From an uncultured archaeon (GTDB lineage Archaea > Aenigmatarchaeota > Aenigmatarchaeia > QMZP01 > JAFGSV01): DNA of 64,000 nt. The stretch lies in NCBI GenBank assembly GCA_964559215.1, contig CAZLFZ010000001.1:75287-139286 (forward strand). Direction: 5' to 3'. A program made the position numbers and the translations under genes. Below are positions 11,443 to 47,302 of the stretch, in pieces. The notes under the pieces were generated by a model that did no database searches, was not told where the DNA came from, and was given only the letters and a program-made list of their open reading frames with translations. How positions within the stretch are numbered: position 1 is the first letter of the stretch; every line of letters begins with the position of its first letter.

Positions 11443-14091
11443 ATGGAGTTCCAGGTGCTTGATGCGGACTATGTCTTGGTGAATGAGAAGCCTGTAATCA
11501 GGGTGTTCGGCAAGAATTTGCAGGGCGAGACCGTTTGCGGGTTCTATGAGGGATTCAGACCCTATTTTTATGCTATTGGGGAAGGCATCGAGGAAAAGCT
11601 GGCCGACAATCCCCAGGTCGTATCGATAGAAAAGGTTAAAAGGTGCCTGCCGGTGGGATACCAGGAACCGTCTGATGTTTACATGATAACACTGAAAAAT
11701 CCGGCAAGGACCGTGGAAGTCAGGGAGATGCTCAGGTCAGCTGGCATCGTTCCATACGAAGCTGACATACTCTTCAAGTACAGGTGGATGAACGATTTTG
11801 GCGTTGGTGGCATGAAATGGGTGAGCACTCCAGAAAGCAATGGTGTATCAACCGACAGTGTCTCCTGCCAGAGAAAAATACAGATGAAGAAGGTGAAAGG
11901 GTTAGCGCTGGAATATGATGCGCCGCTGAAATACTTGGCGCTGGATATAGAGACGGTCGGCGAGGACGAAAGCAAAATGCCTGAAGCCGGCAGGGATCCA
12001 ATAGTCATGATATCGCTCGTTTTCGAACCTTTTTACATGGGAAAGAAATCCCTTGTTCTATCAACCAGAACCGGCGATGGCGTCGAACCATGCAATGATG
12101 AAAAGGGGATGCTGCAGAAACTGGTGGAGATAATCAATGATTACGACCCTGACGTTATGACAGGTTACAACATAATCAATTTCGACCTGCCTTACATCCT
12201 GGAGAGGATGAAAAAGAACAGCGTCAAGCCCATTTTTGGCCGGTGCAAACTCAAGTATGTCAGGGCTGACAAATTCGCCAACCGATACAGGATCTCCATC
12301 GTGGGCCGTATTATCGCAGACTCTTTTCAGATTGTCAAGAGGGGGTGGAATCTCAAAAGGTATGGGCTGGACTTCGTCGCACATGAATTGCTCGGAGAAG
12401 AAAAGGGAGATGTGAAGAAGTCCGAGATAGGCAAATTGTGGAAAGGCTCAGCGGAACAGTTCAGACGGCTTGCCAGTTATTGTCTGAAAGACAGCATACT
12501 GGCCATGAACCTCTTGCTCAAAAGGGACTTGTTGGACAAGTACGTTGCGCTGTCTAAAATATCAGGTTCCCTGTTAAATGACATACTTGGCGGGGGCGAA
12601 ATCCAGAGGATCGAGAACTATCTGCTCAGGGAGTTCAACAAGGAGGGCTACATACTCCCTTCTAAGCTGGACAGGAGCCATATCGAAAAGGTGAATGGCG
12701 ACAAAAAGGAGGAGCTGAAGGGGGGCTTTGTGCTGGAACCCAAAAGGGGTATTCATTCAATGGTTCTGGTGCTTGACTTCAAGTCCATGTATCCTTCGCT
12801 CATCAGGACCTACAACATATGCCCTACAACGCTTGTCACGGACGACGGTACGCATGATGTCATAGCAACGCCCATGGGTGCCAAGTTCGTTTCCAAAGGG
12901 GTGAGGTACGGTATAATGCCGAGGATACTTGAAAATCTCATGCATGAAAGGGGGAAGGTGAAGGAGGAGATGAAGCACGCAGATGATAAAGTGAAGAAAG
13001 GGCTTGACATGAAGCAGCTCGCCCTGAAGGTTATGTCAAACGCCTTTTACGGTTATTTTGGCTATTCCAGAGCCAAGATATACAATCTGGACATCGCCGG
13101 CGCAATAACTTCCCTGGGCAGGCACACGATACAGGAAACCGTCAAGACCGTGGAGGATGAATTCGGATACGAGGTTGTTTACGGCGATACCGATTCTGTG
13201 ATGATAAAGGTTCCCACCAAGAACCTGGACGAGGCCGAGGGAATGGGCAGGGATATGTCTGAGAAAATTACGAAAAAGTTGCCGGGGGTGATGGAACTGG
13301 AATTCGAGAAGATATTCAAGAGGTTTCTCCCCCTGACCAAAAAAAGGTACATGGCATGGTCTGTGGAAAGGGGGGAAGATGGGAAGTGGAAAGAAGAGAC
13401 CATCATGAAAGGCATAGAAACTGTGAGGAGGGATTGGTGCGAGCTGACATCAGAAACGATGGGACAGATAATAGAAATAATATTGAAGCACAACGACGTG
13501 AAGGAGGCTGTGCGCTATTTCAGGGATGTGGTGAAAGGCCTGCTGGCTGGCAAGATAGACATAGAAAAGCTCGTGATAACCAAGACCATAACAAAGAAAC
13601 CGGAATCCTACGTCGGTGTCCAGCCTCATGTAGAGGTGATAAAGAAAATGAGGCAGAGAAGTGTTCTGGATCTGCCGGGTGTGGGAGACAGGATAGGTTA
13701 TGTTATAGTCAAGGGAACGCAGCTCTTGTCAAAAAGGGCCGAGGATCCGGCATATATAAAAGAAAAGGGTCTCATGGTGGATTCCCAGTATTATATCAGT
13801 AATCAGATGTTGCCTCCGCTGGAGAGAATATTCTGCGCTATTGGTGTCGACAGGGAGGAGTTGTTTGGTATGGGAAAACAGATGGGCATCACAGAAGCTA
13901 TAAACAATCATAACCAAAGGCATGCTGAACGTGAACCTCTGGTAGTCAACGTGAAGGACATGAACGGCTTCATATGCAAAAAATGCAACAGATCCTACAG
14001 GAGACCACCTCTGATCGGCCGGTGTGAGTGCGGTGGTTCCTTTCTGTTTTCTTCTCCGATTGGGACTGCAGACCGGATCAGAATATCCTAG
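11443..14091 (+). CDS. polB: Family B DNA polymerase with exonuclease domain, uracil-pocket-like N-terminus and a C-terminal Zn-finger extension
   Basis: LDIET, GYNIINFDLPY, YCLKDS, LDFKSMYPS, KVMSNAFYGY, YGDTDS and KKRY motifs; no intein; extension CKKC...CECGG. Confidence 0.97.
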   Translation: MEFQVLDADYVLVNEKPVIRVFGKNLQGETVCGFYEGFRPYFYAIGEGIEEKLADNPQVVSIEKVKRCLPVGYQEPSDVYMITLKNPARTVEVREMLRSAGIVPYEADILFKYRWMNDFGVGGMKWVSTPESNGVSTDSVSCQRKIQMKKVKGLALEYDAPLKYLALDIETVGEDESKMPEAGRDPIVMISLVFEPFYMGKKSLVLSTRTGDGVEPCNDEKGMLQKLVEIINDYDPDVMTGYNIINFDLPYILERMKKNSVKPIFGRCKLKYVRADKFANRYRISIVGRIIADSFQIVKRGWNLKRYGLDFVAHELLGEEKGDVKKSEIGKLWKGSAEQFRRLASYCLKDSILAMNLLLKRDLLDKYVALSKISGSLLNDILGGGEIQRIENYLLREFNKEGYILPSKLDRSHIEKVNGDKKEELKGGFVLEPKRGIHSMVLVLDFKSMYPSLIRTYNICPTTLVTDDGTHDVIATPMGAKFVSKGVRYGIMPRILENLMHERGKVKEEMKHADDKVKKGLDMKQLALKVMSNAFYGYFGYSRAKIYNLDIAGAITSLGRHTIQETVKTVEDEFGYEVVYGDTDSVMIKVPTKNLDEAEGMGRDMSEKITKKLPGVMELEFEKIFKRFLPLTKKRYMAWSVERGEDGKWKEETIMKGIETVRRDWCELTSETMGQIIEIILKHNDVKEAVRYFRDVVKGLLAGKIDIEKLVITKTITKKPESYVGVQPHVEVIKKMRQRSVLDLPGVGDRIGYVIVKGTQLLSKRAEDPAYIKEKGLMVDSQYYISNQMLPPLERIFCAIGVDREELFGMGKQMGITEAINNHNQRHAEREPLVVNVKDMNGFICKKCNRSYRRPPLIGRCECGGSFLFSSPIGTADRIRIS

Positions 14092-14175: not shown

Positions 14176-14310
14176 TTCCACTTGAAATGAGGGGGTCGGT
14201 TTTTGCATCCACCACCATTTCTTCATCTCAAACTTCATATATTCGCGCTTGGTGACTGTTTTTCCTGCAGGGGACCGAAAAATACAGTCTTCCACTTGAA
14301 ATAGGGGGGT
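14176..14310 (+). promoter_or_regulatory. Pair of direct ORB (origin recognition box) repeats
   Basis: TTCCACTTGAAATGAGGGGGT (14176-14196) and TTCCACTTGAAATAGGGGGGT (14290-14310) match the TTCCAsTnGAAA + G-string ORB pattern. Confidence 0.75.
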
Positions 14311-15747: not shown

Positions 15748-16680
15748 CTAGGCGATTTCAATTTTTCTGGTCTTGAGGTCGATGAGCGCGTGATGCCCTC
15801 TTCCAAAAGACACCAGCGTCACTCCTTTGTAATTTTCCGTCCAGGGCTCGTTTTCGGCCGCAACCCATAATATATCAGGGATCGTTTCCAGTATTCTTTC
15901 ACTGCTCGGCGCGGGTATCTTATCTGTCCCTATGTATCTCTTCTTTAGCCATGCCAGGGCGTCTTCCTTCCTTGTCTGTTCATGCGGCCTGTATACGATT
16001 ATCGCCATTTTTTTGTTTCCCTTCTCCAGGAATATCCAAGCTGGATTTGGGATGTCTTTTTCATTTCCTTCCACATCCGTCACGGTGAGGGGGGTCAGTA
16101 CTATGTCAGCGCTTTTGGCTTGGCTGCCCGGCTCTCCTGCCAAAAGCAGCGTGTTGTCCAGGTTGTTAACCACCCTGTTCATGGGGATGTCCGGATATAC
16201 TACTTCCTCCCCAAACAGCGTTTTCTCCCGGACCCAGCCCCGGACACCAACGACGTCGTCAAGCTCCACCTTTTCCTGGCTTCTCACTTCAACCTCTCCC
16301 GTGCCATCCTCGAGAACGAACCCCTGGCTTGTACGCTCTTTTACCATGCCCACTACAGATAACTTGCTGTTGGTTCTTCCTATGTTGTTAATGGAAACTG
16401 CCTCAATTTTTCTCAACAGAAAATCCCTTATCCTTTTATATTTTTCAGCGTTGAGCTGGATGATGTCATCGGGGGTCAGCTCTAACTTGGTTGCAGCGCC
16501 CCTGACGCAGCAGCTCAGCTTTTCAGCGGCTTCCTCATCTACCTGAATAACCATGCCCCTGTTTTTCTTTGTTTTTTCCAGAAAAGCGTCGAGGCCCGTT
16601 GTCTCTATTTTTTTCAAAATCTCTGGCGTTGCCATGACGCCAAGGCTCAACAGCTTCCGGACTATAGCTTCCCTTTCCAT
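15748..16680 (-). CDS. Degenerate PolD small subunit (DP1) homolog: N-terminal helical domain, OB fold and inactivated phosphoesterase remnant
   Basis: OB fold (VVGMVKERT...LEDGTG...DDVVGVRG), YPDIP, NP, WLKKRY, PDIL and YKGVTLV echo DP1; metal-binding motifs absent; directly downstream of cdc6. Confidence 0.72.
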   Translation of the reverse strand: MEREAIVRKLLSLGVMATPEILKKIETTGLDAFLEKTKKNRGMVIQVDEEAAEKLSCCVRGAATKLELTPDDIIQLNAEKYKRIRDFLLRKIEAVSINNIGRTNSKLSVVGMVKERTSQGFVLEDGTGEVEVRSQEKVELDDVVGVRGWVREKTLFGEEVVYPDIPMNRVVNNLDNTLLLAGEPGSQAKSADIVLTPLTVTDVEGNEKDIPNPAWIFLEKGNKKMAIIVYRPHEQTRKEDALAWLKKRYIGTDKIPAPSSERILETIPDILWVAAENEPWTENYKGVTLVSFGRGHHALIDLKTRKIEIA

Positions 16681-16694
16681 AATAAAATCATGTA

Positions 16695-17918
16695 TCAGAA
16701 ATTAATAAAAGCTTCAGGGAACTCGGAGCCCAGCGTTTTCGACATGAGTGAAACGATCTTTTGACTCAGTTGTATGTTTATTTTTCTTGTCCGGCCGTAT
16801 CTTCCCTTGGATATGACCGAGGCGTTTATCACCCCCAGTACATCGAGCTCGGATATGAGGTCGGATACCCTCCTCTGGGTGAGTGTTTTCAGGCCGTTCT
16901 GAATGGCAACTTTCTCGTACAATTCGTAGACTTCGCCTGTTTGCATGTTTTTCTTCTCTTTTTTATGCAAGGATAGTATGGAGAGCATAACCAGTTTGGA
17001 CTGCTTGGGCTGGGCCCGTATTATCTCTATTATCCGGTCTTTGTCGAGTTTTTCCTCCGCCGCGTCAACGTGGTGCTCTGTGACCTTCCTGCCGTTCTCT
17101 CTTTCAGTAAGTTCCGCTGCCACCCTCAGCAGATCCAATGCCTTTCTGGCGTCGCCGTGCTCCTGCGCAGCCAGCGCCGCGCACTTCGTTATCACCGCGT
17201 AATCCACGCCTTCCTCACTGAAGGCTGTCTTGGCTCTCTCAATCAGTATGTCCCGGAGTTCGTTTGCGTTGTAGGGGGGGAATATCATTTCCTCCTCCGA
17301 GAGGGAGGATCTGATTCTGGGATCCAGATTATCTATGAATGAGACCTTGTTGGATATGCCTACTATGGTAGTTTTTGCTCCGCGCAACTCTTGGTTGATT
17401 CTCGTGAGAGTATATAGAATGTCGTCGCCGACCTTCTCCAGCAAGGCGTCTATTTCGTCCAGAACCAGAATAACGTTGCCGCCGTTCTTTTCCAATATTT
17501 TAGAAAGCTGTTTGTACAGGGTGTTTGTAGGCAGGCCCGTGAAGGGAACTTCAAGTCCGAAGCAAGACAGGAGCTGGGCCAGCAGCCTGTACTCCGTGTC
17601 TGCCACCTTTCTCATTTTGCAGTTCACATAAATTATCTTCACCTTTTTGCTGGAGTTGCTGGCGGTCTCCTGCAAGGTGTTGCTTACCTTTTTTATACAC
17701 AGGCTTTTTCCTGTTCCTGTTTTCCCGTAAATGAACACATTGGATGGCTTTTCTCCCCTCAGAACGGGCGCCAGCATCAGGGCCAGTTCCCGTATTTGTT
17801 TTTCTCTGTGTGGGATGTTCTCCGGTGTAAAATCAGCTGACAGCGTGTCCTTGGCCCTGAACAAACCAACACCGTTTGCGTAGGAGCTGAAGATCTCACT
17901 CAGGGAGCGTTGTGTCAT
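16695..17918 (-). CDS. cdc6: Orc1/Cdc6 replication initiator
   Basis: Walker A GKTGTGKS, Walker B LVLDEID, FPPYNANEL, HGDARKALDLL and winged-helix GRYGRTR. Confidence 0.97.
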   Translation of the reverse strand: MTQRSLSEIFSSYANGVGLFRAKDTLSADFTPENIPHREKQIRELALMLAPVLRGEKPSNVFIYGKTGTGKSLCIKKVSNTLQETASNSSKKVKIIYVNCKMRKVADTEYRLLAQLLSCFGLEVPFTGLPTNTLYKQLSKILEKNGGNVILVLDEIDALLEKVGDDILYTLTRINQELRGAKTTIVGISNKVSFIDNLDPRIRSSLSEEEMIFPPYNANELRDILIERAKTAFSEEGVDYAVITKCAALAAQEHGDARKALDLLRVAAELTERENGRKVTEHHVDAAEEKLDKDRIIEIIRAQPKQSKLVMLSILSLHKKEKKNMQTGEVYELYEKVAIQNGLKTLTQRRVSDLISELDVLGVINASVISKGRYGRTRKINIQLSQKIVSLMSKTLGSEFPEAFINF

Positions 17919-17976
17919 TAAAACATCACCGTTTTTAGAGGAATTATTATATTGCTTCCCTGTTTAAAAAGCTTTA

Positions 17977-36952: not shown

Positions 36953-38230
36953 ATGCGGGTTATAGCCGATTTGCACATCCACAGCCCTTATTCTAGGGCC
37001 ACGAGTAGAAGCATAACAATCCAGAATCTGGAGAAATACGCCAGAATCAAAGGTTTGAATCTGCTCGGCAGCGGCGACTTTACCCATCCGATGTGGTTGC
37101 ACGAGCTCAGGGAAAATCTAACACCTGACGGTTCTGGGATTTTGAAATCCAAGAACGGTTTCAATTTCATTCTTTCCACCGAAGTTTCGAATGTTTACGA
37201 ACAGGAAAAGAAAACCAGAAAGATACACAATGTGATACTCGCTCCGGATTTCGCTACAGTCAGCCAGATAAATGAATTTCTCTCCAAGCACAGCGACCTG
37301 AATTCCGACGGAAGGCCAGTCTTTTACGGGATGCCCTGTCCAGATTTGGTGGAGAATCTGATTTCCATATCAAGAGACATAGTAATAATCCCGGCCCATG
37401 CTTGGACACCCTGGTATGGGATTTTTGGTTCGAAATCCGGTTTCGACTCCGTTGGGGAATGTTTCAAGGACCAGACAAGGCACATTTTCGCCTTGGAAAC
37501 AGGGTTGTCCAGCGACCCGGCGATGAACTGGAGATTATCGGGACTGGACAAGTACGGCCTGGTCTCGAACTCGGACGCTCATTCGTTCTGGCCTTGGAGA
37601 ATCGGGAGAGAAGCCAATATCTTTGAACTGGAAAAAGCGAGTTATGATGATATAGTAAAAGCAATCAAGGAGAGGGATGCTCGAAAATTTAAGTACACTA
37701 TAGAAGTCAATCCCGCCTACGGCAAATACCACTTCGATGGTCACAGGGACTGCGATGTGCATCTAGAACCAATGGAATCGATCAAAATGAACAATATTTG
37801 CCCTGTGTGCAGCCGGCCCCTGACCATAGGAGTGATGCACAGGGTAGAAGAGCTCGCGGACAGGCCAGAAGGCTACAAACCCAAAGGAGCTGTGCCATTC
37901 AAGACGTTGATCCCTCTGACCGAAATTATCGCGACAGCGACCGGGATAGGGCAGCTTTATTCAAAGAAAATATGGGATGATTACAACGGATTGATAAAGG
38001 CATTTGGTTCTGAGTTGGACGTGTTGCTGCATGCGGAACAGGAGGAGCTGAAAAAGGTGGTTCACCCCAAGATAGCGGAACTGGTCTTGAGGGTCAGGCA
38101 CGGAAATGTGAGAATCAAGCCCGGTTTCGATGGGGTTTACGGTCAAATGGTTTTCGGAAATTCCGAAGAATCTGAAGAAAAAAAGAGCAAAAAATCAACT
38201 TCGCCACAGACCAGGCTGGACCAGTTCTAG
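36953..38230 (+). CDS. PHP-domain protein, endonuclease Q family
   Basis: DLHIHSPYSRATS, PAHAWTPW, ETGLSSDP, SNSDAHS, GKYHFDGHRDC and CPVC Zn ribbon. Confidence 0.88.
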   Translation: MRVIADLHIHSPYSRATSRSITIQNLEKYARIKGLNLLGSGDFTHPMWLHELRENLTPDGSGILKSKNGFNFILSTEVSNVYEQEKKTRKIHNVILAPDFATVSQINEFLSKHSDLNSDGRPVFYGMPCPDLVENLISISRDIVIIPAHAWTPWYGIFGSKSGFDSVGECFKDQTRHIFALETGLSSDPAMNWRLSGLDKYGLVSNSDAHSFWPWRIGREANIFELEKASYDDIVKAIKERDARKFKYTIEVNPAYGKYHFDGHRDCDVHLEPMESIKMNNICPVCSRPLTIGVMHRVEELADRPEGYKPKGAVPFKTLIPLTEIIATATGIGQLYSKKIWDDYNGLIKAFGSELDVLLHAEQEELKKVVHPKIAELVLRVRHGNVRIKPGFDGVYGQMVFGNSEESEEKKSKKSTSPQTRLDQF

Positions 38231-38282
38231 GATTGTAAAAAAAACAGAAAATGTCCGAAATAAACGATACGTATCGGCTATT

Positions 38283-39179
38283 TTATCTGCCGTGAACTTC
38301 CACATTGGTCGAGGCGTCTACACAGTATCTGTATCTAGCTGTAATCTCAATTTCATTCTGCACGAGATTCGGGGTCCTGGAGTGCATACTCATATCGCAC
38401 GTCACTTCGCCCCTGTTGCTCCAGATAAGGAGTTCCGCAGGACATTCCACCACACTGGCCGTTGTGGATTTGATTTCCAGTCCAACCTTGTTCATCTTTT
38501 CACTATCGATGCAACTTTTCTGCCCACCGGGAAGGCACAACATACCCCCGCCACCGTTATCAACCGATATTTTCACAGGGAAGGTGACCTGCGTCTCTGT
38601 CACGATTATGGGAGAAGGGGTGGAGGCGGATATGGACACGGGGCTGTCGCCGGATATCGTACTCTGAGACGGCAAACCGGAGCCAGAATCCTGCAACCTT
38701 TTCAGTTCATACCTTGAAATGCTGGGGGTTCTCAGAACGGTTCTTCCCACGTAGTCATAACAGACCGTGATTTTGGGGGTGTACACCATGTGCAGGCCAG
38801 CTTCAATCTCAGGAGATGTCGCTGTCCACGAGCACATTTTTTCTTCCCCCTCCGTCCCGTATTGCAGATTTGGCGCCAACAGTTCGATATTGCCGCTTTC
38901 ACAATCCCGGTCGCTGACTTTCACATTACTCCAGCCATCCAGGTCAGTTAACTGGAAATAAACGTTTCTGGCCTGGAATGAACCCACATTTTTCACATTC
39001 GAATAGAGCGTAACATCTTCGTTAGGATAGACCCGCGAGAAGTCTGGCTTCCAGCCGCTTATTACAATGCCCTGACCGGATAGAGGCGGGTTTAATCCGG
39101 GAATCACGCATCCAGATGTCGTGACAGTTGCCAAAAACAGTAGAAGCAACATGCCGGACCTGATACTGCCGCCTGACAT
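38283..39179 (-). CDS. Secreted or lipoprotein-like SGC-motif protein, paralog 1
   Basis: N-terminal hydrophobic stretch ending TSGC; beta-rich body with YDY...IS..E..R...SP motif. Confidence 0.75.
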   Translation of the reverse strand: MSGGSIRSGMLLLLFLATVTTSGCVIPGLNPPLSGQGIVISGWKPDFSRVYPNEDVTLYSNVKNVGSFQARNVYFQLTDLDGWSNVKVSDRDCESGNIELLAPNLQYGTEGEEKMCSWTATSPEIEAGLHMVYTPKITVCYDYVGRTVLRTPSISRYELKRLQDSGSGLPSQSTISGDSPVSISASTPSPIIVTETQVTFPVKISVDNGGGGMLCLPGGQKSCIDSEKMNKVGLEIKSTTASVVECPAELLIWSNRGEVTCDMSMHSRTPNLVQNEIEITARYRYCVDASTNVEVHGR

Positions 39180-39330
39180 AATATATAATATGACTCAAAG
39201 TTTTTATATCGTTTCTGTAGCAGGATTTCATGAATTTGCCCCAGCCCTATCCAATTTACCAAAGGCTTTTAAGAACATCTATTTTCATGTCGTCATTCAA
39301 AGCCCAGAGGCGAGGATAGAAACAAAGGAC

Positions 39331-40302
39331 TCAGAAAAAGCCCCATTCTTCGGTGCCCGTAACGTCGATTTGAGTCGACTGGTCGGTGTAATAAATATAC
39401 TTCAAGGTGACCGTGAGTTCCCTCTCCTGCCTGTAATCAGGTGGGGTTATGACCTTCAGCTCACATGTTACCTTAGTGTCCCGGCCGTTCCACATAACAA
39501 TGGTCTTGGGCGAAACGGGCCTTGTCAGGCCGACAGGCAAGTGCATGTCATAAAATGTCCCGCCCCACTCGGTTTGGGACCTTGGTGGGCAATCCCCCTT
39601 GAACATGGTTCCCGCTGGCGGTTCTATCTCTATTCCGATCGGGTAGTTCTCGCCGGCAATCAGGCCGCCACCAGTGTTTTCTATATCAATCTGGACGGGG
39701 AAGTATGACTGCTGCCAGTTGTCCTTCGTCCTTACGAACTCGCCGGTTCTTACTTCTACCGATAAGGGGCCTGCGCTCGTGATGGTTGGATCAGCATACA
39801 GCGACTCCCCATTCTGCACGATTCTTCTCAGCTCGTCTGAGGTCACGAATGTTATTGGCTTTGTCACCTTCGTTTCATATGAATAGAACACCCTTACCAT
39901 GGGATCATAAGTCCTCCTCTCGCCCCTTTTGAGGTCAGGTGTCGTCAACCTCCAGTCGGCCGTCGCTATCTGGCCCTCTGTCCCCCTCTCGCGGTCGGCT
40001 GGCCGCAACTCATCCAGCAACTGATCCGTCTGGAAAACCCCCCAGTCCTGGGGATAGATTCCTATCAGCTTGGCTGCAGCCCTGCCGATGACATCGCCCT
40101 GGTTTTGGACCTCCAGATGCAGAATCAGATCATCGGCCGATTCAACGGATTTCAGGCTTGGTTCAAACTTCGTGATAACTATGCCATTGCCTGTTACCCC
40201 AGTGTCGCCACCGAGGTTGATGCATCCTGATACTAAGACAACGGCAACTGGAAGAATCAGCAGCCATTCCAGGTTTTTACCCATTTTTACCTTATTCATC
40301 AT
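39331..40302 (-). CDS. Secreted or lipoprotein-like SGC-motif protein, paralog 2
   Basis: VLVSGCIN; YSY...FVTSDELRR...AGP motif. Confidence 0.75.
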   Translation of the reverse strand: MMNKVKMGKNLEWLLILPVAVVLVSGCINLGGDTGVTGNGIVITKFEPSLKSVESADDLILHLEVQNQGDVIGRAAAKLIGIYPQDWGVFQTDQLLDELRPADRERGTEGQIATADWRLTTPDLKRGERRTYDPMVRVFYSYETKVTKPITFVTSDELRRIVQNGESLYADPTITSAGPLSVEVRTGEFVRTKDNWQQSYFPVQIDIENTGGGLIAGENYPIGIEIEPPAGTMFKGDCPPRSQTEWGGTFYDMHLPVGLTRPVSPKTIVMWNGRDTKVTCELKVITPPDYRQERELTVTLKYIYYTDQSTQIDVTGTEEWGFF

Positions 40303-40387
40303 ATCTCCTTTATTACTTGGTTCAATAACTTTATAAATTTTATTACTGTCTGCCGACTAATATAAGCCTTTGTTCTGGGCACTTTGA

Positions 40388-41398
40388 TTATCCAGTGAAC
40401 TTGGGATTTACCACAACCTGAACGGTTTTGATGAATGTGTACTCATAGTCATCGATGGACACTTCGAGGTGCCTTGTTGCCGTTTTTATCACTTCCTGCT
40501 CAAGGTCCGAAAGGTCAATCCTGCATGTCAGGGGAGCGGATTGCTTGCCTATTAGCCTCACATCCTCGTTCACCTTCCCCCCCAGTTTGCATTCAGTGTC
40601 CGAAATCGGTTTCAAACCGTCGCTTCCTATCCCTTTGACTGTAATATACTCACCTTTCTCCAGGCCGACAACATCATTGCCTTTCGAGTCTTTGAATTTG
40701 GAGGCCAGGTTTCCCGAGCCAGCGTTTTTCACCACCAGTTGCAACATAGTCCTGGCGCCATTATAGACGGGTACAGGCTGTTTGTCCTCGACTGTGAGGT
40801 ATGGCTTTATCGGCCCCTGTCCGACCACTATGTAGGATTCGGTGGACCTGTACTCCCTCTGCTCCAGCGTCCTTTCAAGTTCGGCCTTGCTTATGAAAGA
40901 GATGGTAGTGAGGCTGCTCGTCGTGTAGGGATATGTCACTGATACCTTCATCCCGTCCGGGGGGCATATTGTCCTGAGCTTGACGGGGTTTGACTCATCC
41001 TGCTCCAAGGTCCATACAACCCGCACGATTTCATCTGGAAGCATTCCGTTTATTTCGCACTCAGTGTCGGCCTTTTCACTCCCCTCGCACATTACTTTCG
41101 GGATATTGAAAAGCCCCTGGCAATAGTCATACAGCTCAACAGTGATTGTTTCTTCGATGCTCTTGTCCCCATTGTTTTGGATATAGGCTATTAGCTTTGT
41201 GGTTTGGCCAGCGTCTATTTCAGCCGGGATAGCCTCGAGGCTATTTATCACCACGATGTCATGCTCGTACTGGACCACGGTCGGGCCGCCAAAGCCGGGT
41301 ATGTCCGGAAGTCCTGGGATTTCGATGTTGAGAATGGGAACGGTGCAGCCGGAGCCCATAGCAACCAAAATCAGCACAAAAGGCAGCAACTTCTTCAT
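40388..41398 (-). CDS. Secreted or lipoprotein-like SGC-motif protein, paralog 3
   Basis: GSGCTVP; YPY...FISKAELER...QGP motif. Confidence 0.75.
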   Translation of the reverse strand: MKKLLPFVLILVAMGSGCTVPILNIEIPGLPDIPGFGGPTVVQYEHDIVVINSLEAIPAEIDAGQTTKLIAYIQNNGDKSIEETITVELYDYCQGLFNIPKVMCEGSEKADTECEINGMLPDEIVRVVWTLEQDESNPVKLRTICPPDGMKVSVTYPYTTSSLTTISFISKAELERTLEQREYRSTESYIVVGQGPIKPYLTVEDKQPVPVYNGARTMLQLVVKNAGSGNLASKFKDSKGNDVVGLEKGEYITVKGIGSDGLKPISDTECKLGGKVNEDVRLIGKQSAPLTCRIDLSDLEQEVIKTATRHLEVSIDDYEYTFIKTVQVVVNPKFTG

Positions 41399-41449
41399 AG
41401 TTAATAATAGCCTCGGAACAAATATAAATTTGCCTGAAGTTTATATGAT

Positions 41450-42430
41450 ATGGACGTGCTTTACCAGTATTTCTTGCTGCCTATCATGAGGAACGGGTGG
41501 TTCAACCCCGTGAACAGCCTGGTTTACGGACTGTTTTTGGTAGCGGGCAGCTGGCTTGTCTTCAAGCTTTTGCGTCGCCTGAAAATCCCGATAGACGGCA
41601 GGCTCTATCTATCCTTGCTGCCGTTCATAGCTTTCGCGGGCGTTACAAGGACCTTGAGGGACTACATTTACTTCTCCGTGGCTGGTGCTGGTGAAGCCGG
41701 CTTTTACCAGTCTTTTCTTGGACACATGCAAATTATACAAGAAAAAGCCTACGATTACACCTTTGGCGCCACGGGAAACAGTGTGCTTGCGTCCATAAAC
41801 TCACATGTCATAGCATGGTTCCCCACCCCTGGCTCCTATCTCATAACATTTCTGCTTGCGCTGTCGTCCCTTTTCGTTTCTTTGATAATAGAGAAATATG
41901 GGAAAATACCTTACTGGAAAACGCTGTTTGCGTTCGGTTTTGCATTACTTTTGCTCAACGGCGCCCTGCTGCCGGTAAATTCTTACACGCCACTGCTTTA
42001 CATAGGTATCGTTTCAATTGGATGGACGGTGCTGTTTTTCTCAATCCAGCCAATCGCCAGCATAAACAGAATTAAAAAAATGAGCAAGCGATGCGCAAAG
42101 ATCCTGCAAGACATCTTTACGAAAATCAATTCAGCCATACTCTCAGCACATTTCTTCGATGCGACAGCAACCTTCTTCGCCATAGCCGTGTTCAGCACCA
42201 TGGCGGGCCAGGGATACGCTGAGCAGCACTTCCTGTCGAGGGCGCTGATACCTTTCCTAGGTCCCCAGGTCATGTTCCTGCTGAAGTTCGCGGTCGTTAT
42301 CCCTGTTCTATACTTCACAAACAAATATGTCGAAGAGAAAGAATTCAGGAACTTCCTGCTCCTCGTTATCCTGATTCTGGGACTGGCACCGGCCACCAGG
42401 AACCTCGCCAGGCTGTTAGTGGGGGTTTGA
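41450..42430 (+). CDS. DUF63-family archaeal membrane protein
   Basis: FNPVNSLVYG, SAHFFDATAT, EQHFL and LILGLAPATRNL motifs. Confidence 0.8.
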   Translation: MDVLYQYFLLPIMRNGWFNPVNSLVYGLFLVAGSWLVFKLLRRLKIPIDGRLYLSLLPFIAFAGVTRTLRDYIYFSVAGAGEAGFYQSFLGHMQIIQEKAYDYTFGATGNSVLASINSHVIAWFPTPGSYLITFLLALSSLFVSLIIEKYGKIPYWKTLFAFGFALLLLNGALLPVNSYTPLLYIGIVSIGWTVLFFSIQPIASINRIKKMSKRCAKILQDIFTKINSAILSAHFFDATATFFAIAVFSTMAGQGYAEQHFLSRALIPFLGPQVMFLLKFAVVIPVLYFTNKYVEEKEFRNFLLLVILILGLAPATRNLARLLVGV

Positions 42431-42549
42431 AGGCAGCCAGTTATATCGAATATTATTACAGTATATTGTAAGGATTTGAAAGCAGTAAAACGACATTTTT
42501 TTAAAACTTCCTGCCAATTCTATACTCAATCAAGCTATGGAGTGGTTCC

Positions 42550-43596
42550 ATGGGCATTGCAAATTACAGAAAGGGATTCAACGGCTGGGTAGAAGATCAC
42601 GTACCTGGCGGGCAATACCTCACGATGGATGTCGGGGATGTGGCAAAGGCGGTCGGCAGATATGCCGTTAAAGGAATGAAGGCTGGAGTATACTCACTAC
42701 CATTCGTTCTCGCAGGAAACGCCCTTGCAGATGTGCAGCCAACTACAGCCAGCGACGAGGTTAAGCTGCTTGACAAATTCCATGTGAGGGAGGTTTATTT
42801 CGATGGCAGTTTCGCGGCATGCGATCTGCTGTCAGGAAATAAGTCGGTGTCCGGAGAAATGGTATTGGTGGCCGAGCCGGTCGGTAAGGATTATCTCAAA
42901 CCCGCGCCAGAAGCAAAGGGGGAGCCAGCCAAGCCAATCTTCTTCAAAGGAACACACGGCCCTAAAACAGAACCGGTTGCACCTCCAACCAGCACTGTGA
43001 CCCCTCCAAAGACCTACAGGTTGCACGTTTCGATTCCGAGGACACAGGCATGCCTCAATGATATCAATAAGTTCGTGGGTTATCTCTCCAGGAATTGCGG
43101 TGTCATCCAGCTCGTTAACAACACCCCGGAGAAAGATGACAAAGGAACGCCGGACCCAAACGATGATTTCTACCGTATTAACCATAACGGTTTCGAGATA
43201 GACATGGTGCATGTCGTCGGCGGAATTCCGGAAGGCTTCGATGACAAATGGTATGGCAATGTGAATAATGGGGAGAACCTTGCCGTTGTGGGAGCAGTGT
43301 ATGACACCGGTTTGGATTGGCGCTGCGGAAACCCAAAGGGCAACGGCTATCTGACGCTGTTCTTGGACAAGCCGGACGCTGTAAAAGAAACCCATAGGCT
43401 TGATGTCTTCCTCCCAAAGGAGAGCGGATACAGGACAGGTCAGTCACTGGCAGAGAAAATCAACGGAAGCGGCGTTATTGTCGAGAAGAAACCCGAGAAA
43501 TGGCCACAGCATAATCACCATGGAATAGAGCTGAATGACCTGAAGGTGCAAGTCAAACAGCAGTGGTATCCCAAATCCAGCAGGAAGTGTAGGTAA
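42550..43596 (+). CDS. Hypothetical protein, probably exported
   Basis: 348 aa ORF; LAGNALA/D signal-like segment after a charged leader; beta-rich body. Confidence 0.65.
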   Translation: MGIANYRKGFNGWVEDHVPGGQYLTMDVGDVAKAVGRYAVKGMKAGVYSLPFVLAGNALADVQPTTASDEVKLLDKFHVREVYFDGSFAACDLLSGNKSVSGEMVLVAEPVGKDYLKPAPEAKGEPAKPIFFKGTHGPKTEPVAPPTSTVTPPKTYRLHVSIPRTQACLNDINKFVGYLSRNCGVIQLVNNTPEKDDKGTPDPNDDFYRINHNGFEIDMVHVVGGIPEGFDDKWYGNVNNGENLAVVGAVYDTGLDWRCGNPKGNGYLTLFLDKPDAVKETHRLDVFLPKESGYRTGQSLAEKINGSGVIVEKKPEKWPQHNHHGIELNDLKVQVKQQWYPKSSRKCR

Positions 43597-43696: not shown

Positions 43697-46600
43697 TTAC
43701 TTAGGCATACATCCGTGACTTATGACTTTACACACATCTGAATAATCCCTGGTGCATACCTCTTCCGACAGGTCATTACAAATGGCTGTTTTGAAAGTCC
43801 CCCCAGTTTCTTCTCTTGTCTCGCTCTTTACCTTGTATTCGTAATCTGTATCAAGGTCCAGCGACTTAAGGATAACGCTATGGTCTGTGCTTATACCGCC
43901 GGTGCCTGTCACGGACGTGTAGGAAGTATCAGCAGATTTCTTGTAGCTCACCATGGAATCCGCTGGAATCGATGACATCCATGTTACCGTGACCTCGTTT
44001 GTTGTTCTTTCTAGTGCGTCATTTATTGCTGTTATCCTCAGGTAACAGGTGTCTGATTGCCACTGGCATTTAGAGCTGTACGTGACCTTGCATGACGAAT
44101 CGCTGAGCTTGGTACACCCTGCTGTTGTGAAGGAGCCGCCAGACCTTTCTTTCCCATCGCTCTTCACCTTGAAATCGTATTTTGTCCTCAGATCCAGGCT
44201 TGGGAGCAAGAGCGAATGTTTCTTTTTTGGTTCAGTGGACGCCGGTTCCATCGCACTCCTCCAAGAGGAATCTTCAGACCTCTTGTAGAGAACACGATTA
44301 TCGCTAGTTGGATCCTTGGTTTGCCATTTGATGGTCACACCACTGGTTGTTTCATCGATATTGTATTCTATGTTCCCTATACCGGAATCATCAAACGGGA
44401 CCACCGATGGCTCTTGGCAGACATCGCTGAAAGCGAACAGCGTGTCCTTGGTTTCCCATTTTTTGAACCTAAACGTTGCATTTCCCCTCACGTAATACGT
44501 CTTGGTTGGCCCCCCCGGGTCTGGGGTTGAGGCGAATGTACAGAATATGGCCTGGCCTCTGTTATATTCCAGGCCTTCCCATACATGCGGAGGTCCTCTT
44601 GTTGTGGGCTTTATGGTGCATTTCGGATCCTCGCCGGTCGCTCCCACTTTTTCAAGCTCCTTCGGATAGTCGAGTGTAATCTTGACATACTCCCAGATTA
44701 TTGCGGATTTCTTACCCTCCGCCGATGTGAGGTTGAAGCCTAAGTAGAAGGGTCTCTCTCCCGCAATCAGCGGCTGGTCGAAGGACCCTATGGAGAGCTT
44801 TACGGGGGAGGTTGATATGTGCGAGGGAACTTTCGACAGGGTGAATGTACCCTTCGCTGACCTGTCTCTCCATTCCTGGTCGCTTATGACCGTCAGGGGC
44901 ATCCATGAGCTGACCTCGTAGTCATATTCCACGCTCACGTTGACCCGGATGTACATGTTTCTGTCCGACAATCTTGAAATAACACCACTTTTCATTATCC
45001 TGTCACAGTCGGTATCGAGAGTGAAAAACAAGGGAATTATAAAACCCTTTTCGATCTCATCGGTATTGTATGTTCCTCCATTCCCTATTGTGATCACATC
45101 CTTCAGATTATCCGGCACCTCGACCTTCACCTCGACCATCTTCCCGTCTTCGGGGCCGACATCATGTATGTTCAATGTCATCATAGCCGTGGTCCCTGGA
45201 TATATGGCAGGAACCTGCAGATTCTCTATCTCAACCCCGAATGCACCGGTAGGACCATGGGGGTTCGGCTCATACGTCCCTACCATTATCTGTTGTGCAA
45301 ATCCCATGGGATTGGTGAGCAGCAGGAAGGTCTGGCCGAAGGTGTTCCCCAGCGTACCAAACAGTTCTCCCAGAGGTTCGGTTATGGTCGATACGGCATT
45401 ATGCACCGTTGGCCACCATGCACCGAAGAACCCCTGCCCGACAATCTGCTCACCGGCACCCGCAGAGTAGAAAACAAAAACAACTATCAGCATCAATACA
45501 CCAGTGTAAGGCCTGACCTGTGCGGGAGACGTAATCCCACCTATCAGGCAGATTATCCAGAAGGGCAAGAACACGTTCCCTGCAAGCGTCCCGATGTCGA
45601 GATTTAGTCCAACCCCACCCATAACGCTAATCAGGCCGAATACCATCAGAACCACGAATATGATCTTGTCAAACATCTCGTAGTTCGCTGAGACACCGCT
45701 TCCTGCATGGCCTATGGCCCTTGCGAGGTTCTCCTTCTCTGCTGCTATCGGAAGGATAGCGAAGAACGCCAGCGACAGCCATCCCAGCTCTATGCTCTTG
45801 AAAATGACAAGGAAAACAAATGCCAGCAGAATGGCAACCGGGATTCTGATCAGCCCTTCCATGAATTTGTACGCCTCTTCAGTGCTGTACTCCCCAGGCA
45901 GGCTGAAGTAGGCCGCGAAGCAGAAACCAAGCAGCAGAATGCCCCTGAACGGCAGCTCGGTCGCGAAAAAGCCCCAGCCAAAGAAGAAAAGCATAAAAAT
46001 CTTAAGCAGCGACTTCGTCGCGGCAATGCCCGTGGAATACCTGTTGTCGTAGCCTTTGCCGCTTGCCAGCAGGCTGCCCATATGCCAGGGTTGCCCCTCC
46101 CAATTTTTCACGAGTTTTATCGGCTTGGGGTTAGGCAGTATGTTCATTCCAGCCCAGCAAGCGAAACCTACCAAGAACGGCCAGCCGAACATAGCACCGA
46201 CAACCAGCCCAATCAGGGCAAGGATGAGGCTGAAAGCCGTTCTTTCTGTGTGCTCCCCAATGCCACGGAAAAATTTGCTCATAGCCTTCTCTTTAGACTT
46301 ATACTGATCATACGAATCCTTTTTTGCCCTTTGCTCCTCTGTCAAGAACTTTTCACCCCCCTTTTCTTCCCTACCCAATGACTCCCTGAGGGCTTTCTGT
46401 GCGTTCTCCGAGAAATGTTTGGACTCGTCAGGGTCAAGCCCGTATTGACTTCTCGCGGTGGCCTTGTCAATACCCAGCCTCTTTAAAAAGACGTCAGTAA
46501 TGCCGTGTTTATTTACGTTGGCAGTTATCCTATCCATTTCCCTTTTTATTGACCATTCCTTACCGGATTTTGGGTTATCAATGTCGTAACCCTGATTACG

Positions 46601-47302
46601 CATATCTGTCTTCAGCCTTTCGATTCCCTCAAGCTTTCTCCGCTTTCTCAACTCGAGCCATTGTTGGTAGTCCCTATCTGACAAATCGATGAACCACGGC
46701 TGCGTATGCCCAGGTCCCCTCGGACAATTCCTGTTAACGCAGTACAACCTATATACAACTCCAATTGGCGTACTTTTCTCATCCTCGTATATCTCCTCGT
46801 GGCAATAAGGACACAACTCAGGGATGACCTCTCCTGGATGAACAAGCACAAGTTCGCCTTTCGCGTTTCTCACATAATCGTTATCGCACCTGTCGCAATG
46901 ATATTCACCAAGTGCACCGGCTATTGGATGCAGGGGATACTTCTCATGGCTGAAGCTAAGGCACGAAGGACACCAGAGTGCTCTTGACTTAGGTGGTGGT
47001 GCCTCAGGCGGAGGTTCTGGAGGCGGCTTCGGTGGGGGTCTTTCCCTTCGTTTCTTTGGCAAGTCCTCATCCAAAGCAACACTTTCTGCTCCAACCTCTT
47101 GCATTTCTGCCCTGGCAGCATCAGCCATCCTCCTTAGCTCTTCGGAACTAACATAAGCTTTGGGGTCAGGGTTATAACATGGACAGGATCTTCCAGTTCC
47201 GCCATAATCTTTATTGTCACATCTAAAAAGTCCTCTTCTCACATAAAGCGGCTCTCCGCAAAAAGGACACAAGGGTTTCGAATCCGCTCCTTCTTCTGAC
47301 AT
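43697..47302 (-). CDS. Large multidomain membrane protein: N-terminal Zn ribbons, multi-TM core, SGC-paralog-like domain and two FN3-like/Cys repeats
   Basis: CPFC...C, CPSC...CDRC and CPYC...CVNRNC; about 9-10 hydrophobic helices; YDY...VISDQEWRDR...SP motif; duplicated VT.tW...HS.lL.sLDL.T.Y.yKVKS repeat. Confidence 0.75.
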   Translation of the reverse strand: MSEEGADSKPLCPFCGEPLYVRRGLFRCDNKDYGGTGRSCPCYNPDPKAYVSSEELRRMADAARAEMQEVGAESVALDEDLPKKRRERPPPKPPPEPPPEAPPPKSRALWCPSCLSFSHEKYPLHPIAGALGEYHCDRCDNDYVRNAKGELVLVHPGEVIPELCPYCHEEIYEDEKSTPIGVVYRLYCVNRNCPRGPGHTQPWFIDLSDRDYQQWLELRKRRKLEGIERLKTDMRNQGYDIDNPKSGKEWSIKREMDRITANVNKHGITDVFLKRLGIDKATARSQYGLDPDESKHFSENAQKALRESLGREEKGGEKFLTEEQRAKKDSYDQYKSKEKAMSKFFRGIGEHTERTAFSLILALIGLVVGAMFGWPFLVGFACWAGMNILPNPKPIKLVKNWEGQPWHMGSLLASGKGYDNRYSTGIAATKSLLKIFMLFFFGWGFFATELPFRGILLLGFCFAAYFSLPGEYSTEEAYKFMEGLIRIPVAILLAFVFLVIFKSIELGWLSLAFFAILPIAAEKENLARAIGHAGSGVSANYEMFDKIIFVVLMVFGLISVMGGVGLNLDIGTLAGNVFLPFWIICLIGGITSPAQVRPYTGVLMLIVVFVFYSAGAGEQIVGQGFFGAWWPTVHNAVSTITEPLGELFGTLGNTFGQTFLLLTNPMGFAQQIMVGTYEPNPHGPTGAFGVEIENLQVPAIYPGTTAMMTLNIHDVGPEDGKMVEVKVEVPDNLKDVITIGNGGTYNTDEIEKGFIIPLFFTLDTDCDRIMKSGVISRLSDRNMYIRVNVSVEYDYEVSSWMPLTVISDQEWRDRSAKGTFTLSKVPSHISTSPVKLSIGSFDQPLIAGERPFYLGFNLTSAEGKKSAIIWEYVKITLDYPKELEKVGATGEDPKCTIKPTTRGPPHVWEGLEYNRGQAIFCTFASTPDPGGPTKTYYVRGNATFRFKKWETKDTLFAFSDVCQEPSVVPFDDSGIGNIEYNIDETTSGVTIKWQTKDPTSDNRVLYKRSEDSSWRSAMEPASTEPKKKHSLLLPSLDLRTKYDFKVKSDGKERSGGSFTTAGCTKLSDSSCKVTYSSKCQWQSDTCYLRITAINDALERTTNEVTVTWMSSIPADSMVSYKKSADTSYTSVTGTGGISTDHSVILKSLDLDTDYEYKVKSETREETGGTFKTAICNDLSEEVCTRDYSDVCKVISHGCMPK

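Follow-up and report, generated by a model that had tools for sequence, protein, structure and literature searches.

A further DNA polymerase of probable group B6 from the Aenigmatarchaeota with a C-terminal zinc finger related to PolD DP2, encoded close to a DP1-like protein and Orc1/Cdc6

The combination of a family-B DNA polymerase with the C-terminal zinc finger of DP2, from the unrelated PolD, is already known in the Archaea: it was described in 2020 (PMC7544198) and the interaction of its subunits was tested by experiment in 2025 (PMC12680538). Kazlauskas, Krupovic et al. (NAR 48:10142, PMC7544198) defined the PolB subgroup “B6-aenigma1”, in the genomes of which DP2 is mostly absent and DP1 is inactivated. 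The later study reports that DP2 is missing from the Aenigmatarchaeota lineage, and that in AlphaFold3 models and yeast two-hybrid assays the DP1 of these organisms binds PolB-DP2CTD, whereas PolBs lacking the CTD are not bound (PMC12680538). It calls the Aenigmatarchaeota CTD “degenerate”, with “a different predicted structure”, and re-assigns the two-finger “B6-aenigma2” forms to Baldrarchaeia. In PolD itself, the KxRRxP loop of the DP2 Zn-III finger occupies the OB-PDE groove of DP1, a peptide of 20 residues from Zn-III is enough for nanomolar binding of DP1, and the DP2 helices alpha1' and alpha3' likewise contact DP1 (PMC6355029).

Here we analyse a further example of this arrangement in a 64-kb stretch of archaeal DNA (hereafter the window; features are listed in Table 1). 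The original prediction, of a PolB fused to a DP2-type finger, is supported, and its suspicion that such a fusion had perhaps been reported before from DPANN lineages was correct, as the protein corresponds to B6-aenigma1 (PMC7544198). Recomputed coordinates of the finger agree exactly with those first assigned. We consider it probable (roughly 0.85) that the locus encodes a replicative module of the Aenigmatarchaeota, in which an active B6 PolB that has acquired DP2 Zn-III docks on a dead DP1-like protein.

Table 1. Positions of the features discussed, numbered from the first nucleotide of the window
Feature	Position	Strand	Remarks
Family-B DNA polymerase, probable PolB group B6 (“B6-aenigma1” type)	11443..14091	+	882 aa; Pfam and motifs
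PolB Exo I, LDIET	11941-11955	+	intact
PolB Exo II	12169-12195	+	intact
PolB Exo III	12478-12495	+	intact
PolB motif A, DFKSMYPS	12775-12798	+	intact
PolB motif B, KVMSNAFYG	13027-13053	+	intact
PolB motif C, YGDTDS	13180-13197	+	intact
Degenerate PIP-like motif KQMGITEAI, residues 812-820	13876..13902	+	position of the Thermococcales-type PolB C-terminal PIP region
Linker, residues 821-842, PolB body to finger	13903..13968	+	variable, low-confidence; pLDDT 56-65 (AF2)
C4 zinc finger FICKKCNRSYRRPPLIGRCECGG, residues 843-865	13969..14037	+	Cys 845, 848, 861, 863; DP2 Zn-III homologue
C-terminal beta-strand tail SFLFSSPIGTADRIRIS, 17 residues	14038..14088	+	conserved; HMMER alignment
PolB stop codon	14089-14091	+	after the 17-residue tail
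Inactivated, shortened DP1/B-subunit homologue	15748..16680	-	310 aa; NCBIfam, AF2, Foldseek
DP1-like N-terminal three-helix domain	16570-16680	-	part of the 310-aa protein
DP1-like OB fold	~16195-16383	-	part of the 310-aa protein
DP1-like reduced phosphodiesterase-like domain	~15751-16173	-	without catalytic motifs
Orc1/Cdc6 initiator	16695..17918	-	Pfam Cdc6_C 4.9e-28, Cdc6_lid 1.1e-22

The polymerase matches Pfam DNA_pol_B (1.3e-109) and DNA_pol_B_exo1 (1.7e-33) and, with all of its Exo and Pol motifs intact, is on sequence grounds an active-looking enzyme of the proofreading type. Its closest solved structure is the catalytic subunit of human Pol delta (6e-118), with Thermococcales PolB marginally behind (2.6e-114); this is a similarity ranking and not a phylogeny, although it fits the placement of group B6 beside the eukaryotic Delta-like clade. 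We assembled a set of 120 homologues with overall identities of 52-95%. The upper value is that of the nearest JGI metagenome protein, and the named homologues (52-65% identical) all derive from Aenigmatarchaeota MAGs, with the exception of one labelled Nanoarchaeota.

Alignment to the Thermococcales PolB structures stops at around residue 815-821, some 4-9 residues short of the C-termini of the Pfu and KOD enzymes, so that about 60 residues extend past the usual PolB end, as had been proposed. The PIP-like motif lies at the junction, and its identification stands in part: it is the positional equivalent of the C-terminal PIP of other PolBs, but QMGITEAI lacks the aromatic pair, and none of the 120 homologues matches the canonical Qxx[LIVM]xx[FYW][FYW], the family pattern at this site being Q-x-x-[LI]-[FML]-x-[AIV]-[IL]. 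It is possible that this degenerate motif mediates PCNA binding. The 22-residue linker that follows is weakly conserved and varies in length across the family alignment.

Exactly four cysteines are found beyond residue 798, that is, one Cys4 cluster, and they are invariant in the alignments, as are, entirely or nearly, the flanking P, L, G and GG. The arrangement CxxC-x12-CxC is present in 118 of the 120 homologues and CxxC-x12-CxxC in one, with the pattern absent from the remaining one; since the finger is conserved in about 119 of 120 sequences, it is not a chance pattern of cysteines. In a departure from the DP2 consensus that was originally invoked, the second pair is CxC (C-E-C) and not the CxxC of DP2, which is one residue longer. 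The finger is basic in character (KK, R, RR, R) and includes an RRxP loop, the counterpart of the PolD loop that contacts DP1. Only 16 of the 120 homologues, the present PolB among them, retain both arginines of the KxRRxP loop; a further 63 have a single basic residue ahead of xP and 40 have none. As the loop varies across the family, the interface may differ in detail. In the AF2 model the finger has a pLDDT of ~90 and the strands of the tail (77-81, 84-86 and 88-90 of the CTD model) of 86-92; the family consensus of this tail is LFSSxxGPA.

Evidence for descent from DP2 comes mainly from profile comparisons. Pfam is blind to the finger, returning only a sub-threshold match to zf-DPOE (0.056); its recognition required the NCBIfam DP2 models and a profile of the family run against the PDB. 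The NCBIfam DP2 models recognise all 48 tails examined, the matched stretch being ~1042-1070 of the 1125 profile positions, and the full-length PolB also matches DP2 at positions 1042-1070. A profile built from the same 48 tails finds DP2 Zn-III (residues 1120-1165) as its sole match among solved structures, with E-values of 2.2e-6 for Thermococcus kodakarensis DP2 (6knb_B) and 6.8e-5 for Pyrococcus abyssi DP2 (6hms_B and 6t8h_B), the next E-value being ~0.1 and DP2 alone standing below 0.09. Other families account for one borderline match (E 0.0096) to one tail. The segment CKKCNRSYRRPPLIGRCEC of the finger aligns with the part of DP2 Zn-III that bears the basic KxRRxP loop, and the C-terminal tail aligns with the DP2 strands after Zn-III when the tail profile is compared with DP2 by HMMER. 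In a Foldseek search with the AF2 model of the finger, P. abyssi DP2 gave the best superposition (35 columns, rmsd 1.6 Å, 43% identity), and the Pol epsilon and Pol alpha CTDs rank 6-16 among its matches; the E-values for this 35-residue finger (0.02-0.04) are non-significant alone, and the structural search serves as a consistency check only. The helical bundle of DP2 (alpha1'N/C to alpha3') is absent from the AF2 model of the CTD. The finger without the bundle is therefore DP2-CTD-derived and not a full DP2 CTD; the C-terminal domain of this PolB amounts to a DP2 CTD in minimal and degenerate form.

The 310-residue protein encoded nearby is the presumed partner of the finger. It matches the NCBIfam DP1 model NF003118 (2.9e-16) in its N/OB part only, and its AF2 model (pLDDT 87, pTM 0.76) gives 49 Foldseek matches at E<=1e-3, all of which are DP1 or the B-subunits of Pol alpha, delta, epsilon or zeta (best 6e-13, TMq ~0.6). 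There is no Pfam match to Metallophos or DNA_pol_E_B in this protein, which lacks the five metallophosphoesterase motifs, with catalytic His and Asp, of an active DP1 exonuclease. By comparison with P0164, a DP1-like relative that retains it, the motif I/II segment has been lost, AENE stands in place of GNTHE, and none of the three histidines of the protein is family-conserved. Judged by sequence and model together, and in agreement with its earlier designation as DP1-like, the protein is homologous to DP1 and the B-subunits, and its phosphodiesterase domain is dead. Its homologues are also from Aenigmatarchaeota.

The DP1-like gene lies 1.66 kb from the polymerase gene, in the order PolB> <TctA <DP1-like <Cdc6. 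The gene for Orc1/Cdc6 is directly upstream of it on the same strand, with a 14-bp gap, and the two appear to form an operon. The arrangement Cdc6, DP1-like, TctA, convergent with PolB, recurs in two further Aenigmatarchaeota contigs (L001 and L002), the 742-kb CP070804.1 and one JGI contig; PolB identity between these syntenic relatives is 55-65%. Many of the PolB and DP1-like matches also come from contigs of equal length. Among the open reading frames of at least 200 aa in the window there is no gene for DP2 or for another polymerase. An Rfam scan of the window found no RNA families.

An oriC-like region (ORB/DUE) is situated beside Orc1/Cdc6, with ORB-like boxes at 17977-18180, and two further ORB-like boxes occur immediately 3' of PolB (14176-14310). 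An intact metallophosphoesterase gene (18295-18975) is divergent from cdc6 and also adjoins cdc6 in L002. We considered whether its 226-aa product might be the active nuclease domain of DP1, split off as a separate protein, and rejected this: the protein is a generic YfcE/aq_1956-like phosphodiesterase and is unlike P0164 (E 2.3), which keeps a Metallophos_2 match and the motif I/II segment.

It is conceivable that the finger is a generic zinc ribbon, either independent or of the RpoP, Nop10 or TFIIE type, and that its likeness to DP2 reflects convergence on a short motif. The domain comprises just 35-40 residues or so, its Foldseek E-values are weak and its Pfam match to zf-DPOE is below threshold, HHpred searches with such fingers also return RpoP and other ribbons (PMC7544198), and the CxC spacing departs from the CxxC of DP2. 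We nevertheless regard convergence as very improbable, given that DP2 is the only family matched across the 48 independent tails, and at the correct Zn-III position, that the 43% identity of the finger includes F-x-C-x-K-C-N, Y/F-RRPPL-x-G-x-C, CGG and the next strand, and that the finger is accompanied by a DP1 homologue in a lineage from which DP2 has been lost. This comparison between DP2 and unrelated zinc ribbons had been set in advance as the means of refuting the assignment, and both the 48-tail profile and the NCBIfam models favour DP2. Slightly less probable still is that the PolB and the DP1-like protein stem from an integrated mobile element or virus and are not the chromosomal replicase, even though Kazlauskas et al. 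have proposed that B6 polymerases may have come from viruses or mobile elements (PMC7544198). The neighbours are housekeeping genes (NAC, a P-type ATPase, the thermosome, H+-PPase and acetyl-CoA synthetase), the genes adjoin Orc1/Cdc6 and the oriC-like region, their gene order persists across the phylum in relatives whose PolBs are 55-65% identical, and the window shows neither integrase nor capsid genes.

Somewhat more credence, while still unlikely, is due to the alternative that the finger is of DP2 origin and is not a docking site for DP1, with the DP1-like protein working apart from it, for instance with GINS or Cdc6 alone. Zn-III and the adjacent strands of PolD touch the nascent duplex and the basic residues of clamp-1 line the DNA (PMC6355029), which would suit a finger of basic character, and variation of the RR loop across the family points in the same direction. 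Against this, yeast two-hybrid and AF3 results have DP1 binding PolB-DP2CTD and not CTD-less PolBs (PMC12680538), the isolated PolD Zn-III peptide suffices for DP1 binding (PMC6355029), and the DP1-like gene is tightly associated with finger-bearing PolB, both in occurrence and in gene order. Moreover, contact with DNA and docking on DP1 are not mutually exclusive.

We therefore retain docking of the finger on the DP1-like protein as the preferred reading. According to this proposal an active, proofreading PolB of group B6 acquired the last zinc finger (Zn-III) of PolD DP2, and the finger and short strand tail most likely enter the groove that the OB fold of the DP1-like protein forms with its dead phosphodiesterase-like domain. 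The interface used would be that shared by DP2 and DP1 in PolD and by the CTD and B-subunit in eukaryotic Pol alpha, delta and epsilon, its exact form in the present pair probably following these precedents. The exonuclease of DP1 may have been lost because PolB carries its own, which would leave the remnant as a scaffold. Binding of DP1N to Gins51 is among the results presented in PMC9023282, and the N-terminal helical domain of the DP1-like protein could plausibly tether the polymerase to GINS/CMG, as do DP1N and eukaryotic Dpb2.

A bolder and decidedly tentative extension is that this is the smallest natural pair of PolB and B-subunit, in which a 40-residue finger-plus-strand docks a 310-aa DP1 remnant, and that the pair is hard-wired to the origin, since the apparent operon of cdc6 and the DP1-like gene lies beside the ORB/DUE region. 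To our knowledge, neither the origin linkage nor the minimal interface is discussed in PMC7544198 or PMC12680538. If true, this would provide a useful minimal model of the interface between catalytic subunit and B-subunit in eukaryotes, and of the recruitment of polymerases at origins. More generally, the arrangement illustrates, in present-day archaea, the step by which the eukaryotic replicative polymerases are thought to have arisen, whereby the PolD core was exchanged for a family-B core and the C-terminal docking element of DP2 was retained together with a deactivated DP1, the B-subunit. This significance was drawn out both in the 2020 analysis (PMC7544198) and in the 2025 paper (PMC12680538); the window contributes one more well-assembled example with a clear gene context and no new idea.

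In comparison with the DP2 CTD of PolD (P. abyssi 6HMS/6T8H and T. kodakarensis 6KNB), the finger F-x-C-x-K-C-N-x-x-[YF]-RRPPL-x-G-x-C-x-CGG and the beta-strand after it are shared, and in DP2 this element docks in the OB-PDE groove of DP1. The catalytic body, however, is a family-B polymerase, whereas that of DP2 is a two-barrel polymerase; DP2 also has a four-helix bundle (alpha1'-alpha3') and a C-terminal PIP box that are missing here, and the whole CTD amounts to about 60 residues as against about 200 in DP2. The predicted eukaryote-like architecture holds with qualification. Like eukaryotic Pol alpha, delta, epsilon and zeta (for example 4Y97, 5VBN and 6TNY), the pair combines a PolB core that ends in a metal-binding module with a B-subunit that descends from DP1, has OB and PDE-like domains and is catalytically dead. 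In contrast, the eukaryotic CTD has CysA and CysB around a helical bundle, of which only the CysB/Zn-III equivalent is found here, with no CysA module, helical bundle or Fe-S cluster, and the solved eukaryotic B-subunit chains are roughly 390-575 residues long, compared with 310 in the DP1-like protein.

Baldrarchaeia, which belong to the Asgard archaea, have likewise lost DP2, kept DP1 and fused PolB to a DP2-derived CTD; their PolB3-DP2CTD is phylogenetically related, and binds DP1 by yeast two-hybrid and AF3 (Nat Ecol Evol 2025, PMC12680538). The Baldrarchaeia CTD is full-length and resembles those of DP2 and eukaryotes, whereas that of the Aenigmatarchaeota is shorter and has been described as degenerate (PMC12680538). 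The closest counterpart is B6-aenigma1 (PMC7544198), with which the present PolB shares its origin in the Aenigmatarchaeota, active exonuclease and polymerase domains, a single C-terminal Cys4 motif most like DP2 Zn-III, co-occurrence with an inactivated DP1 and, probably, a relationship to the eukaryotic Pol delta/alpha/zeta clade. Nothing substantive differs between the two, and the protein is a further member of this group, to the description of which we add the CxC spacing of the finger, the degenerate PIP-like motif upstream of it and a conserved place beside Cdc6 and a candidate origin.

The PolB of the window has an exonuclease domain (residues 104-311) and a polymerase domain (residues 380-799) recognised by Pfam, with Exo I-III and polymerase motifs A-C all intact. 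Alignment with Thermococcales PolB structures ends at residues 815-821, so that about 60 residues lie beyond the normal PolB end. The final 70 residues (...GMGKQMGITEAINNHNQRHAEREPLVVNVKDMNGFICKKCNRSYRRPPLIGRCECGGSFLFSSPIGTADRIRIS) include the zinc finger FICKKCNRSYRRPPLIGRCECGG, exactly where the original prediction had placed it.

Several searches identify this finger as Zn-III, the last zinc finger of the PolD large subunit DP2. The full PolB and its tail match NCBIfam DP2 models at profile positions ~1042-1070 of 1125 (the tail alone scores E 1.5e-5). The same model is matched by 48/48 diverse tails; an unrelated model, of a hypothetical protein, is a borderline second match of one tail (E 0.0096). 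When a profile built from the 48 tails was run against all PDB sequences, T. kodakarensis DP2 came first (6KNB_B, residues 1128-1165, E 2.2e-6), followed by two P. abyssi DP2 chains, 6HMS_B and 6T8H_B (both at E 6.8e-5); below them the best E is 0.1. The aligned DP2 region is Zn-III. The AF2 model of the tail has a pLDDT of ~90 across the finger and the strands that follow it. In Foldseek the top-ranking structures are chains of P. abyssi DP2 (superposed over 35 columns with rmsd 1.6 A and 43% identity), with Pol epsilon and Pol alpha C-terminal domains (CTDs) at ranks 6-16 mixed with unrelated zinc proteins; for such a short domain the E-values are weak. The extension thus does not turn out to match unrelated Zn ribbons in place of DP2, the outcome that would have counted against the original prediction.

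A database search (E<=1e-20) returned 994 PolB homologues, and motifs were counted in the best 120, which share 52-95% identity and are almost all 870-900 aa long; those that are named are Aenigmatarchaeota MAG proteins. CxxC-x12-CxC is present in 118 of these 120 tails and CxxC-x12-CxxC in one, and a single homologue (P0048) is without the second Cys pair. In two independent alignments the four finger Cys never vary, and the neighbouring P, L, G and GG vary little or not at all. The tail motif is therefore a conserved domain, shared by a protein family that spans the phylum. The PIP-like QMGITEAI occupies the position of the C-terminal PIP region in Thermococcales PolBs; the family pattern there is Q-x-x-[LI]-[FML]-x-[AIV]-[IL], and an aromatic pair is absent from QMGITEAI and from all of the best 120 homologues. 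Binding of PCNA through this motif is possible.

The protein proposed as a DP1-like partner matches NCBIfam DP1 (PolD small subunit) over its N-terminal/OB part only (2.9e-16). Its 46 homologues (265-361 aa) are from Aenigmatarchaeota, a few being named 'DNA polymerase II small subunit/delta subunit B' by JGI. The AF2 model (pLDDT 87, pTM 0.76) gave 49 PDB matches at E<=1e-3 (best 6e-13), all of them either DP1 of PolD or B-subunits of eukaryotic Pol alpha/delta/epsilon/zeta. Pfam detects no metallophosphatase in this ORF, the phosphodiesterase motif I and II segment is deleted, GNTHE is replaced by AENE, and the family alignment shows no conserved His. Judged from alignment and model, motif loss together with a B-subunit-type fold marks it as a catalytically dead, shortened DP1 and predicted functional analogue of the eukaryotic B-subunit.

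P0164 (361 aa, Logan contig), a distant outlier of this short family in alignment A3, retains the motif I/II segment (FISDLHLE...FIAGDTGD), the GNTHE motif and a Pfam Metallophos_2 match, and may represent a transitional stage from active DP1 to the truncated form.

The PolB-DP2 finger fusion is already described for Aenigmatarchaeota, as the original prediction had cautioned for DPANN lineages. Kazlauskas et al. 2020 define the PolB subgroup 'B6-aenigma1', which occurs together with a group of inactivated DP1 proteins (Aenigma_GB_GCA_002789635-like), and find DP2 missing from most Aenigmarchaeota (PMC7544198). According to a later study (Nature Ecology & Evolution 2025, PMC12680538), Aenigmatarchaeota and Baldrarchaeia are the only archaeal lineages with DP1 but without DP2; the study speaks of a 'degenerate DP2CTD' in Aenigmatarchaeota and moves the two-finger 'B6-aenigma2' sequences into Baldrarchaeia. 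The checks proposed originally have therefore all been published for this phylum; the biology is important, though the arrangement is already known as a discovery.

The gene order is NAC (leftward), PolB (rightward), then a TctA-family membrane protein, the DP1-like protein and Orc1/Cdc6 (all leftward). This arrangement recurs on CP070804.1 (L001), a 742-kb contig from Aenigmatarchaeota, and on a JGI contig (L002) in which a few additional genes are inserted; many PolB and DP1-like matches lie on contigs of equal size. No DP2 or other polymerase was found among window ORFs of at least 200 aa. The remainder is a normal stretch of chromosome, with genes for thermosome, H+-PPase, acetyl-CoA synthetase, a type IV pilus/archaellum-type ATPase and membrane proteins, and large surface-type proteins. 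The PolB/DP1-like/cdc6 cluster appears to lie at a replication origin.

The intergenic region upstream of cdc6 has an oriC-like layout, with ORB-like boxes on both sides of an AT-rich stretch (GC 0.29). Where 1.3 copies of the core TTCCANNNGAAA would be expected, the window has six, five of them in this cluster of boxes. The intergenic region 3' of PolB contains a 21-nt ORB-like box, TTCCACTTGAAAT(G/A)(A/G)GGGGGT, twice in direct orientation and 114 bp apart (0.03 expected by chance); matching boxes occur in L001 (9883-9902), likewise between PolB and TctA, and in L002 (16075-16094), just upstream of cdc6.

An intact calcineurin-like metallophosphoesterase gene is divergent from cdc6, and a similar gene adjoins cdc6 in L002; its product is of the generic YfcE/aq_1956-like type and shows no detectable relationship to the nuclease domain of DP1. 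Three very large ORFs have no Pfam match, or only a purple-acid-phosphatase N-terminal (FN3-like) one, and probably encode DPANN surface or adhesion proteins. Another ORF encodes, in an archaeon, a MATCAP domain (microtubule-associated tyrosine carboxypeptidase/DUF1704; PF08014, E 4e-24). Five members of a six-ORF run (~300-425 aa each) are without a Pfam match at 1e-5.

Features of the window discussed in the text
Feature	Position	Strand	Remark
PolB	11443-14091	+	ORF, 882 aa
KQMGITEAI (PIP-like)	13876-13902	+	PolB ORF translation
Zinc finger	13969-14037	+	PolB ORF translation
21-nt ORB-like boxes	14176-14196, 14290-14310		3' of PolB
DP1-like protein	15748-16680	-	ORF, 310 aa
Intergenic region	17919-18294		upstream of cdc6
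ORB-like boxes	17977-17988, 18014-18025	-	
ORB-like box TTCCACTAGAAACACGGGGGCGGGG	18043-18054	-	with G-string
AT-rich stretch	~18070-18140		
TCCACTGGAAA...GGGGGCGGGG	around 18145-18180	+	oppositely oriented
Metallophosphoesterase	18295-18975	+	226 aa
Six-ORF run	36953-43596		
Run members	36953-38230, 38283-39179, 39331-40302, 40388-41398, 42550-43596		
Run member, DUF63 protein	41450-42430		
Very large ORF	43697-47302	-	1201 aa
MATCAP-domain ORF	47347-49407	-	686 aa
Very large ORF	54119-59902	-	1927 aa
Very large ORF	59866-61773	-	635 aa

The Zn-III loop of PolD, which carries R1131/R1132, occupies an acidic groove where the OB and PDE parts of DP1 meet, and a 20-residue Zn-III peptide has nanomolar affinity for DP1 (PMC6355029). 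Given its homology with Zn-III, the PolB finger most likely binds the DP1-like protein by this mode of docking. The pair would then form an enzyme of two subunits, resembling Pol delta, with proofreading by the PolB exonuclease and with the DP1 remnant as a scaffold. Thermococcus DP1N links to GINS (PMC9023282), and by analogy the N-terminal helical domain of the DP1-like protein may perhaps do so, a step that we infer. The observation of a finger beyond PolB is confirmed and its interpretation supported; of the PolB-DP2-CTD chimera originally proposed, the DP2-type finger stands, with the qualification that only a minimal remnant of the CTD, one finger, is present. The KxRRxP loop has its RR in the window PolB, and only 16 of the best 120 homologues keep it. 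The second Cys pair is CxC in the window PolB, whereas it is CxxC in DP2; the window protein has a single metal module, unlike DP2, and it is without the helical bundle that borders Zn-III both in DP2 and in eukaryotic CTDs.
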